The notes beneath the pieces were generated by a model. It was not told the origin of the DNA and searched no databases. It saw only the letters and a program-made list of their open reading frames with translations. Source: Candidatus Latescibacterota bacterium (GTDB lineage: Bacteria > Latescibacterota > UBA2968). From it: DNA of 64,000 bases. Below, piece by piece: positions 6,925 through 24,148 of this stretch. The stretch is taken from positions 1,920,001-1,984,000 of the forward strand of contig OZ242010.1 in NCBI GenBank assembly GCA_965204745.1, in the 5' to 3' direction. The position numbers were made by a program, and so were the translations under genes. How positions within the stretch are numbered: the first letter of the stretch is position 1; each line of letters starts with the position of its first letter.

Positions 6925-7293
6925 TCAATCGTCCAGCGCGTGCGCGACGAGATCGTCCATATCGACAAATTCGAGCGTGGAAATGTGCGTCCCCGGCAAA
7001 AAGACGGGCGGGGCAACGCCTGCATCTCGGGCTTCGATCCAGCGTTGCACGCACAGGCACCAGCGGTCGCCGGGCTTGAGCCCTGGAAAGCGATATTCCG
7101 GCATCGGGGTGCTCAGGTCATTGCCCACGGACCGGGAGAAAGCCAAAAACTCCTCGGTCATTTCCGCGCAGAGGATGTGCAATCCCAGATCGCCCGGACC
7201 CGTGCGGCAACAGCCATCTCGAAAAAAACCCGTCATCGGTTCGGTACAACAATCGACGAGTTCTCCGCCAAAAACATTTCTTCCGCGGTTCAT
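6925..7293 (-). CDS. DUF2237 family protein
   Basis: NVFGGELVDCC.EPMTGFFRDGCC..GNDLSTP..FPGLKPGDRWCLC. Confidence 0.9.
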   Translation of the reverse strand: MNRGRNVFGGELVDCCTEPMTGFFRDGCCRTGPGDLGLHILCAEMTEEFLAFSRSVGNDLSTPMPEYRFPGLKPGDRWCLCVQRWIEARDAGVAPPVFLPGTHISTLEFVDMDDLVAHALDD

Positions 7294-7385
7294 GGTTCAC
7301 TCCAGGTGAGAGGCAAGAGGTGAGAAGGAAGAGGGCCGCCCTGCCCAACCCCCTTCGGCAAGACGGGAGATACTCTCTTAAAAGG

Positions 7386-8393
7386 TCAAGGGGTTTTCGG
7401 GGTGATTCGATAGAATTTTTCGCCCTCAAAATCTTGGTCATGGCGCAACATGCCCCAGATCGAATGGAGCAACTTTCGCATCACCGCAACGATAGCCTGC
7501 AAAGGTTTCTTGCCGCGGGCGATGAGTTGGTCATAGAAGGCTTTGACATGGCCTTCGTGTCTGATGGCCACCCAGGCAGGCATATAGAGGGCATGGCGGA
7601 GGTACTTATTCCCGGTTTTCGAGATGCGTCTTTGTGGATTGGCGGTTCCGGATTGTTTGGGTTTGGGATCCAGGCCTGCATGTGCGACCCACTGGGGCGG
7701 TTGCATCTCCTCTGGCAAAAGGGTCAACTCGGCCAAGAGCCGCAAGGCACTCGTTTGCGCGATGCCAGGCGTCGAGCAGAGGCGTTGGTAGGCACGCTTG
7801 AGGGGCTCATCGTGCAAAACGAGATCGAGGGCTTGGCTTTCCAAGTATGCAATCCGGCGTTTGAAGTGTCGAATATTCACCTGAATATCGCGTGCGATGA
7901 GACGTGTGCTGCGGATGTGGTAGCTCTGCGCGTGGTTGCGGCTCTGTTCGCGGATGATCTCCTGCTTGAGTTGGTCAATGCGTCTGGTGAGGGCTTGCAG
8001 TTGAAGCCGTTGCTCGCTCGGCGCTTGCCAAGGCACAAAAGGCATGCGCTCGGCATAGTCGAGGATCAACAACGCATCCTTCGCATCCGTCTTCGCCCGT
8101 TGCATGCAGGCTTGGGCGTACTTGCTCATCGCTTTGGGATTGACGACCATGACCTTTGTGTGGCGATGCCGATGCAAGGCCAAGGCCACCCCCAAACTGT
8201 AAAGCCCGGTCGCTTCGAGGCACACAGAGACCATGTGCCCGCCCTTCGTGAGCCACTTCAGCAACCGCTTATGGGCTTGGGGATCATTGGCAAAGGTCGC
8301 TTGCATGACAGCTTGTCCGGGTCTGGACAGGGCAACGGACAACGTGCGGGCACTGACATCAATGCCGGCAAAAGCGGGGTGAGATTTCGACAT
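7386..8393 (-). CDS. IS110 DEDD transposase (bridge recombinase)
   Basis: GIDVS, CLEATG, KTDAKDA, QSG serine motif, ISKTGNKYLRHALY; RBS CAGGAGG. Confidence 0.95.
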   Translation of the reverse strand: MSKSHPAFAGIDVSARTLSVALSRPGQAVMQATFANDPQAHKRLLKWLTKGGHMVSVCLEATGLYSLGVALALHRHRHTKVMVVNPKAMSKYAQACMQRAKTDAKDALLILDYAERMPFVPWQAPSEQRLQLQALTRRIDQLKQEIIREQSRNHAQSYHIRSTRLIARDIQVNIRHFKRRIAYLESQALDLVLHDEPLKRAYQRLCSTPGIAQTSALRLLAELTLLPEEMQPPQWVAHAGLDPKPKQSGTANPQRRISKTGNKYLRHALYMPAWVAIRHEGHVKAFYDQLIARGKKPLQAIVAVMRKLLHSIWGMLRHDQDFEGEKFYRITPKTP

Positions 8394-8409
8394 GGGGGCC
8401 TCCTGTGAT

Positions 8410-8645
8410 GAGGGGGTTGTAAGGGATCTGGTGCGCGCTCGGGGTCGCGTCCCGACCATTGACGCCAAGTCTACCGGTCTTGTATATGCAGCCTCAAGGG
8501 GCTTAGATACTCTTCGGCATAGACCCGGCGGTCGGGGGGCCTATCTTACCTACAAGGTCATCGCCTTCAAGAGGGGCCGGCCTTCCCCGAGCCGGGCATC
8601 AAGATGGCTTATCTCGATACGAGGGCGCAACTCCTAATTAACCCT
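8410..8645 (-). ncRNA. Putative IS110 bridge RNA (ends approximate)
   Basis: Two stem-enclosed internal loops with guides matching the donor junction (8505-8513, 8479-8485) and the target (8570-8576, 8545-8551). Confidence 0.78.
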
Positions 8646-8680
8646 TACTTCCAAGATACAAGAGGGGAGAGGCAAGAGGT

Positions 8681-8803
8681 GAGAAGGCCACCCAATAACC
8701 CCAAGTGAGAGGGGAGAGGCAAGACGGGAGAAGGCCACCCAACCAACCCCAAGTGAGAGGGGAGAGGCAAGAGGTGAGAAGGCCACCCGACCAACCCCAA
8801 AAC
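8681..8803 (+). repeat. Tandem ~42-49 bp units (heptamers + GAGAAGGCCACCC..CCCCAA)
   Basis: Three units; inverted homologous cluster at 27590-27745. Confidence 0.75.
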
Positions 8804-8867
8804 CCGACGTGCTTTATTGATGAATTGCTATCGCAGTTGTACACCGTTCCGCCGATTCGCCGTTCTG

Positions 8868-10214
8868 TTAATTTGCATAAGACACAGTGCCGGTTTCATC
8901 GACCGTATAGCCCCACTGGTCGATATACGCCGCGCCGGGTAGAAACGAGTCGTTTTGTGCGTCGAGGCGGCGTTGTAGCCAGGCGTCTAATTCGAGTCGC
9001 AACTTCGCGTAGTCGGGGTGGTCGATGAGATTGTTCAACTGGAAGGGATCGGCATCGTTGTCGTAGAGCAACCACGGGCCGTCCAATGAGCGAACGTACG
9101 TGTATTGCCCGGTGCGTAGGCCGCGGTATTCACGGCCTCCCTTTGCGCGTGTCCACTGCCCAAAGGGTTGCGGGCATTGCAACAGAGCCGCGCCATCAGA
9201 GGGCGTGTCGCCCCCGTTGAGATAGGCCGAATAATCCAAGCCCTCGACCGTGGCCGGGATGTCGATCCCGCACAGGCCCAACAGCGTGGGCATGATGTCC
9301 GGGATGTCGATGGGGGCGTCAATCTCGCGGCCCGATGCGCCGAATTGCGCGGGCCAGCGCAACAAGAACGGAATGCGAATGGACTCGTCCCAAGGCTGTT
9401 GCTTTTTCGCGCTGCCCTGCGAGCCGAGCATGTCGCCGTGATCCGAAAAAAAGAGCAAGATCGTGTTGTCCGCCATGCCCGCGTCGTCGAGGGTTTGGAG
9501 CAGGTCGCCCATGCAATCGTCGAGCGCGGTGCAATGGGCGTAGTATCCCGCGATCCATTGTCGGGCGTTTGCTTCGGATTGCGGGGGCACATTGGGGCGC
9601 AACGGCACGTCTTCTGCGCGATACATGGCGCGGTATTTTTCCGGCGCGGTTTCATAAGGCGCGTGCGGCGGCCCCCACGAGAGCGCGAGGAGGAAGGGGT
9701 TGTCCGCATTGCGATTTTGAATGTAGGCTTGCACGTCGCGCGTTTGTGCGATGGCGTCGTATCCCTCCCACAGGAGCTTTTCGTCCGAGTTATCGGCATA
9801 GTAAAAAGATCGGTTGTAATTGTGCGTGCATTCCAACACTTTCCAATAGTCAAAGCCCTGCCGGTTTTCAGGGGGAATGTAGTTGGATCGCCCATTTGCA
9901 TGGACGTGCCATTTGCCGACGTACGCAGTGTCGTAGCCCGCGTTTTTGAATGCATGGGCAAGGCTCATCGCCCTGTCGCTCAGGTGAACATCGTTGACAA
10001 AAACCCCGTGCGTGAGGGGGTATTGACCCGTGAGCAGAGACGCACGCGCCGGGCTACAGACCGAGCACCCGGAAACCGCGTGCGTGGCATTGATGCTTTG
10101 AGACGCGAGCCGGTCGATGTTGGGCGTTTGCACGCAGGTGTTGCCGGCATAACCAAATGCCTGTGCGCGCCACTGATCGCCGAAGATGAGGATGACATTG
10201 GGAGATTCGGGCAT
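8868..10214 (-). CDS. Formylglycine-dependent sulfatase
   Basis: PNVILIFGDQWR, CSPAR, GKWH, SDHGDMLG. Confidence 0.93.
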   Translation of the reverse strand: MPESPNVILIFGDQWRAQAFGYAGNTCVQTPNIDRLASQSINATHAVSGCSVCSPARASLLTGQYPLTHGVFVNDVHLSDRAMSLAHAFKNAGYDTAYVGKWHVHANGRSNYIPPENRQGFDYWKVLECTHNYNRSFYYADNSDEKLLWEGYDAIAQTRDVQAYIQNRNADNPFLLALSWGPPHAPYETAPEKYRAMYRAEDVPLRPNVPPQSEANARQWIAGYYAHCTALDDCMGDLLQTLDDAGMADNTILLFFSDHGDMLGSQGSAKKQQPWDESIRIPFLLRWPAQFGASGREIDAPIDIPDIMPTLLGLCGIDIPATVEGLDYSAYLNGGDTPSDGAALLQCPQPFGQWTRAKGGREYRGLRTGQYTYVRSLDGPWLLYDNDADPFQLNNLIDHPDYAKLRLELDAWLQRRLDAQNDSFLPGAAYIDQWGYTVDETGTVSYAN

Positions 10215-22391: not shown

Positions 22392-22514
22392 TGTCGTTCC
22401 CTCGCGTTGAATGGGTCTGGGTTTGAGTAATGGGTGCGAAAATAAATCATGAGAAGGATAATGTCAATAGGGGCAAGAGGGGAGAGGCAAGAGGCAAGAT
22501 ACTCTCTTAAAAGG

Positions 22515-23522
22515 TCAAGGGGTTTTCGGGGTGATTCGATAGAATTTTTCGCCCTCAAAATCTTGGTCATGGCGCAACATGCCCCAGATCGAATGGAGCA
22601 ACTTTCGCATCACCGCAACGATAGCCTGCAAAGGTTTCTTGCCGCGGGCGATGAGTTGGTCATAGAAGGCTTTGACATGGCCTTCGTGTCTGATGGCCAC
22701 CCAGGCAGGCATATAGAGGGCATGGCGGAGGTACTTATTCCCGGTTTTCGAGATGCGTCTTTGTGGATTGGCGGTTCCGGATTGTTTGGGTTTGGGATCC
22801 AGGCCTGCATGTGCGACCCACTGGGGCGGTTGCATCTCCTCTGGCAAAAGGGTCAACTCGGCCAAGAGCCGCAAGGCACTCGTTTGCGCGATGCCAGGCG
22901 TCGAGCAGAGGCGTTGGTAGGCACGCTTGAGGGGCTCATCGTGCAAAACGAGATCGAGGGCTTGGCTTTCCAAGTATGCAATCCGGCGTTTGAAGTGTCG
23001 AATATTCACCTGAATATCGCGTGCGATGAGACGTGTGCTGCGGATGTGGTAGCTCTGCGCGTGGTTGCGGCTCTGTTCGCGGATGATCTCCTGCTTGAGT
23101 TGGTCAATGCGTCTGGTGAGGGCTTGCAGTTGAAGCCGTTGCTCGCTCGGCGCTTGCCAAGGCACAAAAGGCATGCGCTCGGCATAGTCGAGGATCAACA
23201 ACGCATCCTTCGCATCCGTCTTCGCCCGTTGCATGCAGGCTTGGGCGTACTTGCTCATCGCTTTGGGATTGACGACCATGACCTTTGTGTGGCGATGCCG
23301 ATGCAAGGCCAAGGCCACCCCCAAACTGTAAAGCCCGGTCGCTTCGAGGCACACAGAGACCATGTGCCCGCCCTTCGTGAGCCACTTCAGCAACCGCTTA
23401 TGCGCTTGGGGATCATTGGCAAAGGTCGCTTGCATGACAGCTTGTCCGGGTCTGGACAGGGCAACGGACAACGTGCGGGCACTGACATCAATGCCGGCAA
23501 AAGCGGGGTGAGATTTCGACAT
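22515..23522 (-). CDS. IS110 DEDD transposase (bridge recombinase)
   Basis: Protein identical to copy 1. Confidence 0.95.
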   Translation of the reverse strand: MSKSHPAFAGIDVSARTLSVALSRPGQAVMQATFANDPQAHKRLLKWLTKGGHMVSVCLEATGLYSLGVALALHRHRHTKVMVVNPKAMSKYAQACMQRAKTDAKDALLILDYAERMPFVPWQAPSEQRLQLQALTRRIDQLKQEIIREQSRNHAQSYHIRSTRLIARDIQVNIRHFKRRIAYLESQALDLVLHDEPLKRAYQRLCSTPGIAQTSALRLLAELTLLPEEMQPPQWVAHAGLDPKPKQSGTANPQRRISKTGNKYLRHALYMPAWVAIRHEGHVKAFYDQLIARGKKPLQAIVAVMRKLLHSIWGMLRHDQDFEGEKFYRITPKTP

Positions 23523-23538
23523 GGGGGCCTCCTGTGAT

Positions 23539-23774
23539 GAGGGGGTTGTAAGGGATCTGGTGCGCGCTCGGGGTCGCGTCCCGACCATTGACGCCAAGTC
23601 TACCGGTCTTGTATATGCAGCCTCAAGGGGCTTAGATACTCTTCGGCATAGACCCGGCGGTCGGGGGGCCTATCTTACCTACAAGGTCATCGCCTTCAAG
23701 AGGGGCCGGCCTTCCCCGAGCCGGGCATCAAGATGGCTTATCTCGATACGAGGGCGCAACTCCTAATTAACCCT
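23539..23774 (-). ncRNA. Putative IS110 bridge RNA, copy 2
   Basis: Same sequence as the copy 1 leader. Confidence 0.78.
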
Positions 23775-24148
23775 TACTTCCAAGATACAAGAGGGGAGAA
23801 GGCTACCGGGCTGTTCCTCAAGTTGTCAGTTGTCAGTTGACTAATTCTAACGAACATAGCGGTGGGGAGCGGGCGGGCACGCACGGGTGGCGGGGTGGAG
23901 CAGATGGGGACGCACGGGCGGTTGGGTAGGGCGGTGGGCAGATCTCACCTCTTACTTCTTGCCTCTTACTTGGGGGCAGGGCTTGCGGTGGGGCGGAGGG
24001 GGTAGGGTAATCCGCGCAATCCCCTAATCCGCGAAAATCCGCGATCCGCTTTTACTCTTGAACTATTTTTATATCTGTATTATAGTTGGCCTTACCACGT
24101 AACGACATATCGCCTCTCTGCTCCCCATTCCATTGGAGGCGTTTTTTT

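Follow-up and report, generated by a model that had tools for sequence, protein, structure and literature searches.

The 64,000-nucleotide (nt) stretch of DNA analysed here, called the window (positions 1,920,001 to 1,984,000 of contig OZ242010.1, assembly GCA_965204745.1, Candidatus Latescibacterota bacterium), carries an insertion sequence of the IS110 group between window positions 8660 and 7370. Judging from the DNA itself, this is in all likelihood an active-looking element whose leader encodes a bridge RNA of the IS621 type, with one pair of guides for the insertion target and one pair for the joined ends of the element. Very probably the element is active as a jumping gene. It is a further member of a class of bridge-RNA systems known since 2024 and represents no new mechanism. 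All element coordinates are given in window numbering and are read on the minus strand.

The boundaries of the element are defined by its many copies. Its leader occurs at 59 loci in the source genome (5.48 Mb, one contig; names beginning with G000 denote positions in it), and 52 of these loci have both ends, 1286-1292 bp apart. The left end (LE) of the first copy in the window (copy 1) begins TGTATCTTGG at 8660, and its right end (RE) terminates ..AGAGAGTAT / ..AAGAGAGTAT at 7370. The LE contributes 267 nt of non-coding DNA before the ATG, and the RE only 16 nt past the stop codon. All 52 two-ended copies have CT at both junctions. Target duplication beyond this 2-nt core is absent, and in the relatives of a second genome the overlap consists of CT only. 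The boundaries are also supported by a contig from sequencing run X2 that joins 7366 to 8755 without the element and reads ..CTCCCCT-CT-CCCGT.. at the depth of the flank contig (93.4); in this contig the intervening letters are given as 'not known', and the left side aligns farther outward by one 44-nt repeat unit. The recombinase open reading frame (ORF), 335 amino acids (aa) long, is intact in 51 of the 52 copies, and 37 places in the genome are 98-100% identical to the window copy across ~1300 bp, which together point to a recent burst of expansion. The one two-ended copy with a broken frame, G000:C1:3891542, has a stop after 262 aa.

The recombinase contains both Pfam domains of the family, namely DEDD_Tnp_IS110 (PF01548, E = 1.2e-24, residues 9-154) and Transposase_20 (PF02371, E = 4.8e-20, residues 203-287). 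Its best match among solved structures is ISCro4 (PDB 9t56; E = 7.6e-40, residues 7-326 of 335), and it aligns full-length with the IS621 recombinase over the same residues 7-326 (phmmer E = 5.8e-36, 127.6 bits). All five catalytic residues are kept: D12, E60, D103, D106 and S248-G249 align to D11, E60, D102, D105 and S241-G242 of IS621. The residues were counted by hand in the HMMER alignment to 8wt6_A, whose chain numbering is offset by +2, and their roles in IS621 are those given by Hiraizumi 2024 (PMC11208158).

Evidence for a guide RNA comes from the leader. An earlier sequence-only reading of the window, made by a model from the letters alone, had proposed the circle junction AGAGTAT-CT-TGTAT together with four guide strings. 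Reconstructed from the CT at 8662-8661 and the CT at 7369-7368, the junction reads likewise, and all four strings are found in the 267-nt leader in the order given, which is that of IS621 (Table 1). Two of them, the left and right target guides (LTG and RTG), lie in a first module, the target-binding loop (TBL); the left and right donor guides (LDG and RDG) lie in a second, the donor-binding loop (DBL). The pairings claimed for the LDG (9/9), the RDG (7/7) and the LTG (7/7) were all recovered. So was the description of the RTG as having one wobble against the second copy in the window (copy 2) and doing worse against copy 1: it forms six Watson-Crick pairs and one U.G with the copy 2 right flank CTTGCCT, and pairs at 4/7 positions with the copy 1 right flank CTCCCGT. 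The span assigned to the RNA, 8410-8645, had its 5' end about right (the likely start is ~8645) and went ~55 nt too far at the 3' side, where the donor loop ends at 8469.

Table 1. Coordinates of the element, its ends, its predicted RNA and its second copy in window numbering
Feature	Position	Strand	Remarks
IS110-family element, copy 1 (1291 bp)	7370..8660	minus	ends TGTATC.. (LE) / ..AGAGTAT (RE), common to 52 two-ended copies
Recombinase gene, 335 aa (stop codon included)	7386..8393	minus	sole ORF of the element; ribosome-binding site AGGAGG at 8404-8399
CT core, left junction	8661..8662	minus	left target CTCCCCT at 8669-8663
CT core, right junction	7368..7369	minus	copy 1 right target CCCGT at 7367-7363
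Predicted bridge RNA, ~180 nt	8466..8645	minus	5' end inferred from junction promoter; 3' end set just past DBL stem
TBL module	8524..8596	minus	outer stem 8596-8579/8541-8524; inner hairpin AAGG..CCUU 8567-8554
LTG CCCCUCU (5 nt + CT)	8570..8576	minus	7/7 identical to left flank + CT
RTG AGGUAAG	8545..8551	minus	complement of CT + TACCT
TBL handshake AU	8543..8544	minus	complementary to donor positions 6-7 (AT of AGAGTAT)
DBL module	8469..8524	minus	outer stem ~8524-8515/8477-8469; inner hairpin 8503-8490
LDG AGAGTATCT (RNA AGAGUAUCU)	8505..8513	minus	9/9 identical to RE end + CT
RDG AUACAAG	8479..8485	minus	7/7 complementary to CT + TGTAT
DBL handshake	A8478	minus	directly behind RDG; tracks target position 7
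-35 hexamer TTGACC, in RE	7384..7389	minus	overlaps stop codon; motif match
-10 hexamer TATCTT, in LE	8654..8659	minus	motif match
Copy 2, same element (1291 bp)	22499..23789	minus	flanks CTCCCCT-CT / CT-TGCCT
Copy 2 guides	LTG 23705-23699, RTG 23680-23674	minus	

The role of chance was gauged by shuffling the leader 20,000 times with dinucleotides preserved: the LDG arose 16 times, the RDG 162 times, the LTG 992 times and the RTG 423 times, and the four never arose together. For the two donor guides the evidence is match rather than covariation, the guides and the ends being nearly invariant; the LDG of one subfamily in the same genome (class C), AGCGTATCT, has one mismatch to its own RE. The RDG of relatives, AUAGACAAG, pairs with CTTGTAT only in the split manner of IS621, and therefore the contiguous 7/7 match of the window RDG may be the same split guide. 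In other words, the longer RDG of the sequence-only reading can equally be read as a split one of the IS621 type.

In the minimum free energy (MFE) fold of the window RNA, two stem-loops come after small hairpins at the 5' end, and both combine a large internal loop with an inner hairpin. RNAalifold applied to 27 distinct leaders yields the same two modules, the TBL and the DBL, and the internal loops that hold the guide strings are bounded by conserved stems. For this comparison 38 fetched leaders were examined and identical ones were collapsed to 26 distinct rows; a remnant at G000:C1:2972661-2972880 (L047), whose last 13 nt are non-homologous, was excluded from the alignment. Over the 27 leaders 97.7% of the alignment cells are paired, compared with 30-51% when the partners are slid by 1-3 columns, and six pairs are changed on both sides, compared with 1.3 in shuffles; none of 500 shuffles reached six. 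These pair counts were taken after two spurious pairs inside the donor loop had been removed, and together with the MFE and consensus folds they underlie the predicted RNA. In the TBL, helices 2 and 3 are 98.7% and 98.1% paired. In the DBL, helix 4 is 96.6% paired with three pairs changed on both sides, and helix 5 is 99.1% paired. The 5' stem-loop is weakly defined, a 4-bp helix with one-sided changes. Folding and covariation across homologs was the check that the sequence-only reading had itself proposed, and its outcome agrees with that reading in two of the stems and in the guides, which covary with the flanks. The GGCC/GGCC stem of the TBL is invariant in 27/27 aligned sequences, and 26-27 of the 27 retain the AAGG/CCUU hairpin. 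The DBL stem that it had drawn, GUCUA/UAGAC plus CCG/CGG, can form in this copy, but the relatives better fit GUC/GAC, a 2-nt bulge and UGCCG/CGGUA.

Guides and flanks change together, in eight guide classes from three genomes and in two more distant elements. In the source genome, class B carries the LTG CGCCTCT at the flank CGCCTCT and the RTG AAGTAAG at CTTACTT, and class C carries the LTG TCCCTCT at TCCCTCT and the RTG AGGTGAG at CTCACCT. Such subfamilies with other target loops are the older ones in this genome. Relatives with recombinases at 76-84% aa identity lie on two Latescibacterota chromosomes that are metagenome-assembled genomes. One of them (chromosome 2) pairs the RTG AGAAAAG with the right flank CTTTTCT; the other (chromosome 3) has the LTG CTCGCCTCT with the flank CTCGCCTCT/CTCACCTCT and a shorter RTG, GGGAG, with CTCCC. 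Further away, an element on a Gemmatimonadota contig (L038, 48% aa identity) has the RTG CCGTTAG with the right flank CTAACGG (7/7), and a Salinibacter ruber plasmid element (L052, NZ_CP030363.1, 52.5% aa identity) has the RTG CCGTTAT with the right flank ATAACGG (7/7) and the LTG GGTACAT against the flank GGGACAT. Over the eight classes, with ten non-core positions each, guides agree with their own consensus flanks at 69/80 positions. Permuted guide-flank pairings reach 69/80 in 14 of 100,000 trials, a proportion that overstates the independence of guide classes related by descent and is to be taken as indicative, not as a true probability.

Two further observations concern distant elements. 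The Salinibacter ruber element appears to have an AT core rather than CT: AT is common to both junctions and is included in its RTG. An Acidisarcina polymorpha plasmid element (L053, NZ_CP030844.1, 42% aa identity) was left out of the counts; its RE was not found downstream. Its LTG region matches the left flank at 9/10 positions, and an RE-like ACAGAGTAT (240-300) lies 41 nt upstream of the LE start; it may be a rearranged or tandem remnant.

Features outside the guides agree with the IS621 scheme as well. The TBL handshake AU matches the donor AT in 24 of 27 aligned sequences. For the DBL handshake base against target position 7 (n = 27), there are seven A/T pairs, ten G/C pairs, nine G.T pairs and one mismatch; the second DBL handshake position is unpaired. 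A promoter-like pair of hexamers, TTGACC-18-TATCTT (9/12), arises only across the RE-CT-LE joint, the best score in the integrated copy being 7/12, and relatives keep the -35 hexamer as TTGACC or TTGAAC. A promoter and terminator scan of the integrated element gave one weak internal promoter-like site and no terminator and was uninformative.

These features fit a mechanism modelled on IS621. The element would excise as a circle, whose RE-CT-LE joint would make a promoter of the sigma-70 type, TTGACC-18-TATCTT. This promoter would drive an RNA of ~180 nt (~8645-8466), which would bind recombinase dimers via the TBL and the DBL. The first internal loop would read the target CCCCT-CT-TACCT in arrays of heptamers, and the second would read the joined ends AGAGTAT-CT-TGTAT through the LDG AGAGUAUCU and the RDG AUACAAG. 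A tetramer of the DEDD/Ser recombinase would then exchange strands at the CT core.

Insertion sites of the 52 two-ended copies can be compared with the guides that each copy carries. A copy's own guides match its flanks 7/7 + 7/7 by Watson-Crick pairing in 23 of the 52, and every guide position pairs in 43 when wobble (G.T/U.G) is allowed. Guide-flank mismatches are present in the other nine, including copy 1 with its 4/7 RTG, and eight of these nine have one perfect half. Among the 45 copies that share the guide pair of the window element, the LTG CCCCUCU matches the left flank 7/7 in 41, and the right flank is CTTACCT (7/7) in 24 and CTTGCCT (one U.G) in 17. The natural target is CCCCT-CT-TACCT, or TGCCT in place of TACCT via the U.G wobble. 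The two versions of the site are not used equally. For the perfect 12-mer CCCCTCTTACCT there are 20 occupied sites and five empty ones (80% saturated, 20/25), whereas for the wobble 12-mer CCCCTCTTGCCT the figures are 17 and 65 (21%, 17/82), a difference in occupancy with Fisher p = 1.2e-7.

The base composition of the genome predicts about one occurrence of each 12-mer, perfect or wobble. Both are part of arrays of heptamer units (CCTCTYN), of which there are ~220 with at least three units genome-wide (8281 bases), and these arrays supply the element's targets. Upstream of copy 1 (8661-8840), tandem units of ~44 nt consist of GGGGTTGGTTGGGTGGCCTTCTC and the heptamers CCTCTTG/CCTCTCC.

How did copy 1 come to lie at a site that its own RTG reads poorly? 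Copy 1 and one other copy of the main family, G000:5152003, are both inserted at CCCCT-CT-CCCGT (CCCCTCTCCCGT), and they are the only main-family copies with at least two mismatches in the right target. The simpler explanation, proposed for copy 1 only, is a half-match off-target insertion by its own bridge RNA, with a perfect match on the left and a tolerated poor one on the right. The perfect half in eight of the nine imperfect copies agrees with such tolerance, and a 2026 preprint reports half-match insertion for IS621. The site is moreover original, as its empty form in another population indicates. The choice of site is harder to accommodate. The right half CCCGT follows a perfect left half at only eight of 655 empty non-cognate sites, yet it was hit by both outlier copies, and no copy lies at the better-matched and commoner right halves TACGT (18 sites), TGCGT (38) and CCCCT (45). 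The random expectation is ~0.015 per event and ~2e-4 for both. On balance the half-match account of copy 1 is a near-even judgement that falls a little short of probable.

A second explanation, again for copy 1 only, is that the insertion was aimed by a TBL supplied in trans from another subfamily, namely by the remnant L047 (G000:2972661). This remnant is a transposase-less deletion derivative of 218 bp in which LE positions 1-183 (the 5' hairpins, an intact TBL, and the DBL's 5' half up to and including the RDG) have been fused to AGTAT + CT. It encodes the LTG CCCCTCT and the RTG ACGGGAG, which match the copy 1 site 7/7 + 7/7. Only one of the 58 genomic TBL modules (nine classes) has this pair of guides, and it fits the site of both outlier copies. 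Donor guides and ends are common to all subfamilies, and published work on IS621 (PMC11208160/PMC11208158) reports that separate TBL and DBL RNAs support recombination in vitro and that in one synapse the two loops stem from different RNA molecules. Action of a target loop in trans is therefore possible. A second candidate case is copy G000:602782, which lies at a site encoded by the TBL of copy G000:1297036.

The trans account of copy 1 nevertheless meets several objections. L047 lacks the junction promoter as well as the 3' strand of the DBL stem. None of the seven minor-class copies lies at the main-class target, though main-class TBL genes outnumber them 45 to 7, which suggests either a preference for action in cis or simply that these copies are older. 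The heptamer arrays have a small vocabulary of units, so a chance match is less unlikely than it would be for random sequence. The copy at 602782 (G000:C1:602782, L041) is a mosaic, and its TBL was perhaps swapped after insertion: its leader resembles class B up to the TBL and the 94-97% classes in the rest, and its flanks fit the TBL of 1297036 rather than its own. Its mosaic structure suggests recombination or gene conversion between copies. A trans-acting TBL at copy 1 is thus possible but unlikely, and the broader conclusion, that the subfamilies share one donor code, carry different target loops and have target loops that can act in trans, is offered tentatively and with the same limited belief. 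If true, it would mean that an active IS110 burst can be given new targets by decayed remnants of the guide-only kind, a natural trans-programming of a bridge recombinase. A rearrangement after insertion was rejected as the source of copy 1's odd right flank, since the empty-site contig of run X2, which has the depth of the flank contig, reads ..CTCCCCT-CT-CCCGT.. across the joined flanks; the right flank is accordingly original.

The identification of the leader as a bridge RNA has itself to be set against several results that weigh the other way. Besides the relatedness of the guide classes and the nine mismatched copies already described, the fold energy of the single sequence is no better than that of shuffles (z = -1.25), and structural covariation is modest, because the close relatives compared here have strongly conserved stems. 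A scan of 7000-9200 against Rfam 15 (E <= 1) matched no family, and Rfam may hold no bridge-RNA family. No RE-to-LE joint, as expected of a circle or a tandem, was present in the X1, X2, X5 and X6 contigs over 7100-8960, a negative of little weight given that fragmented contigs of a 50-copy repeat drop rare forms. Among the listed sequencing runs with this stretch, none is on record as RNA. The lack of RNA runs, the non-significant single-sequence fold and the empty Rfam result would also suit a reading in which the internal copies of ends and flanks are features at the DNA level (subterminal recombinase-binding repeats or gene conversion) and the leader is a regulatory 5' untranslated region with no guide RNA. 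That reading is very improbable, because binding repeats explain copies of the element's own ends but not leader segments that track the flanking host DNA across eight classes and two distant elements, because the guide strings lie within the internal loops of conserved stems, and because the two guides match opposite strands, one the top and one the bottom, and both overlap the core, which is the published geometry of the RNA guides (PMC11208160).

With the bridge-RNA reading retained, the element can be compared with IS621 point by point. The claim of an IS621 architecture with different programming holds for every feature that can be computed: the recombinase, the ends, the order of TBL and DBL, the core in the pairings, the handshake and the promoter. 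Both elements have a long LE, a short RE, a CT core and a leader RNA with the TBL followed by the DBL (PMC11208160/PMC11208158), and both recombinases have DEDD RuvC-like and Tnp domains along with the five catalytic residues. In both, the left guides (LTG and LDG) have the top-strand sequence of the left target or donor plus the core, the right guides (RTG and RDG) are complementary to the core plus the right side, and all four pairings take in the core, a feature of IS621 described by Durrant 2024 (PMC11208160). Handshake positions lie just 3' of the RTG and RDG in IS621 (Hiraizumi 2024, PMC11208158), and here too; both systems also have a promoter split across the RE-LE junction. The predicted RNA is ~180 nt long, against 177 nt in IS621. 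Both target a repeated intergenic family, here C/T-rich heptamer arrays and in IS621 the REP elements, and in both a common natural site departs from the guide at one position, by a U.G wobble here and by a tolerated mismatch at target position 4 in IS621 (PMC11208160).

The differences concern guide lengths, copy number and relatedness. The LTG pairs over 7 nt (5 + CT) here and over 9 nt in IS621, the RTG over 7 nt (CT + 5) here and over 4 in IS621, and the RDG can be read as 7 contiguous nt here whereas it is split 2 + 4 in IS621. The longer right guides noted in the sequence-only reading are thus real with respect to the 4-bp RTG of IS621. They are not new, since Durrant 2024 (PMC11208160) already reports naturally longer RTGs in some orthologues and better specificity with an RTG of 7 bp, so the 7-bp RTG is known natural variation. 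The copy number is very high (52 two-ended copies), unlike that of IS621. The recombinase, from an uncultured Latescibacterota-like genome, is a distant relative of that of IS621, and it is likewise remote from ISCro4 / IS622 of Citrobacter rodentium, whose recombinase is 88% identical to that of IS621 and which uses the same bridge-RNA scheme including handshake guides (Perry et al., 10.1101/2025.05.14.653916). Of 72 orthologues screened in human cells, 18 were active (10.1101/2025.05.14.653916), and the earlier description of a candidate new programmable recombinase is fair in the sense of one more orthologue and no more than that. A literature search found no paper mentioning both 'Latescibacter' and 'IS110'.

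Other IS110-type systems are further removed. The IS1111 group belongs to the same recombinase superfamily, and in it an element-encoded 3' RNA, the seekRNA, reads both target and donor. Its elements have a short LE, a long RE and long subterminal inverted repeats (PMC11208160, Extended Data Fig. 10 legend). Membership in that group was considered and rejected, as the RE here extends only 16 nt past the stop codon and it is the 267-nt LE that carries the guides. ISPpu9 and ISPpu10 of Pseudomonas putida, also of the IS110 family, resemble the present element in their many copies, in their insertion into a repeated extragenic sequence family and in the orphan copies of their small-RNA gene elsewhere in the genome (PMC12288879, 10.64898/2026.03.19.712850); their host phylum and target family are unlike those found here.

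As mechanism the element adds nothing new, because IS110 bridge RNAs were described in 2024 and predicted orthologues run to thousands. Its value is that of an unusually clean natural data set: 52 two-ended copies are found in a single genome, along with several subfamilies whose target loops have been reprogrammed naturally. The natural 7-bp RTG is of the length that raised specificity when it was engineered into IS621, and the off-consensus insertions offer material for asking if natural target loops work in cis or in trans. Being a remote orthologue from Latescibacterota, a phylum for which no IS110 literature was found, the element could join orthologue screens, and it may already be among the predicted orthologues of the 2024/2025 papers.

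A few minor observations concern the surroundings of the element and its debris. Runs from five studies contain at least half of the stretch's sampled words; one of the studies is labelled a sponge metagenome, and contigs from its run X5 cover the element. At G000:C1:1121591-1124187 two full copies lie head to tail, one from a 96% subfamily and one from the main family, separated by CTTACCTCT only, and the right-target side of the first copy was used by the second insertion. Orphan pieces of the leader, either its first 59-70 nt or its last 108 nt, are present at G000:C1:4730102, 2089466, 950646 and 4373185, and the piece at 2089466 ends ..CCATCT. Another TGTATCTTTGG comes directly after it, which gives the impression of a second element end inserted at that point.

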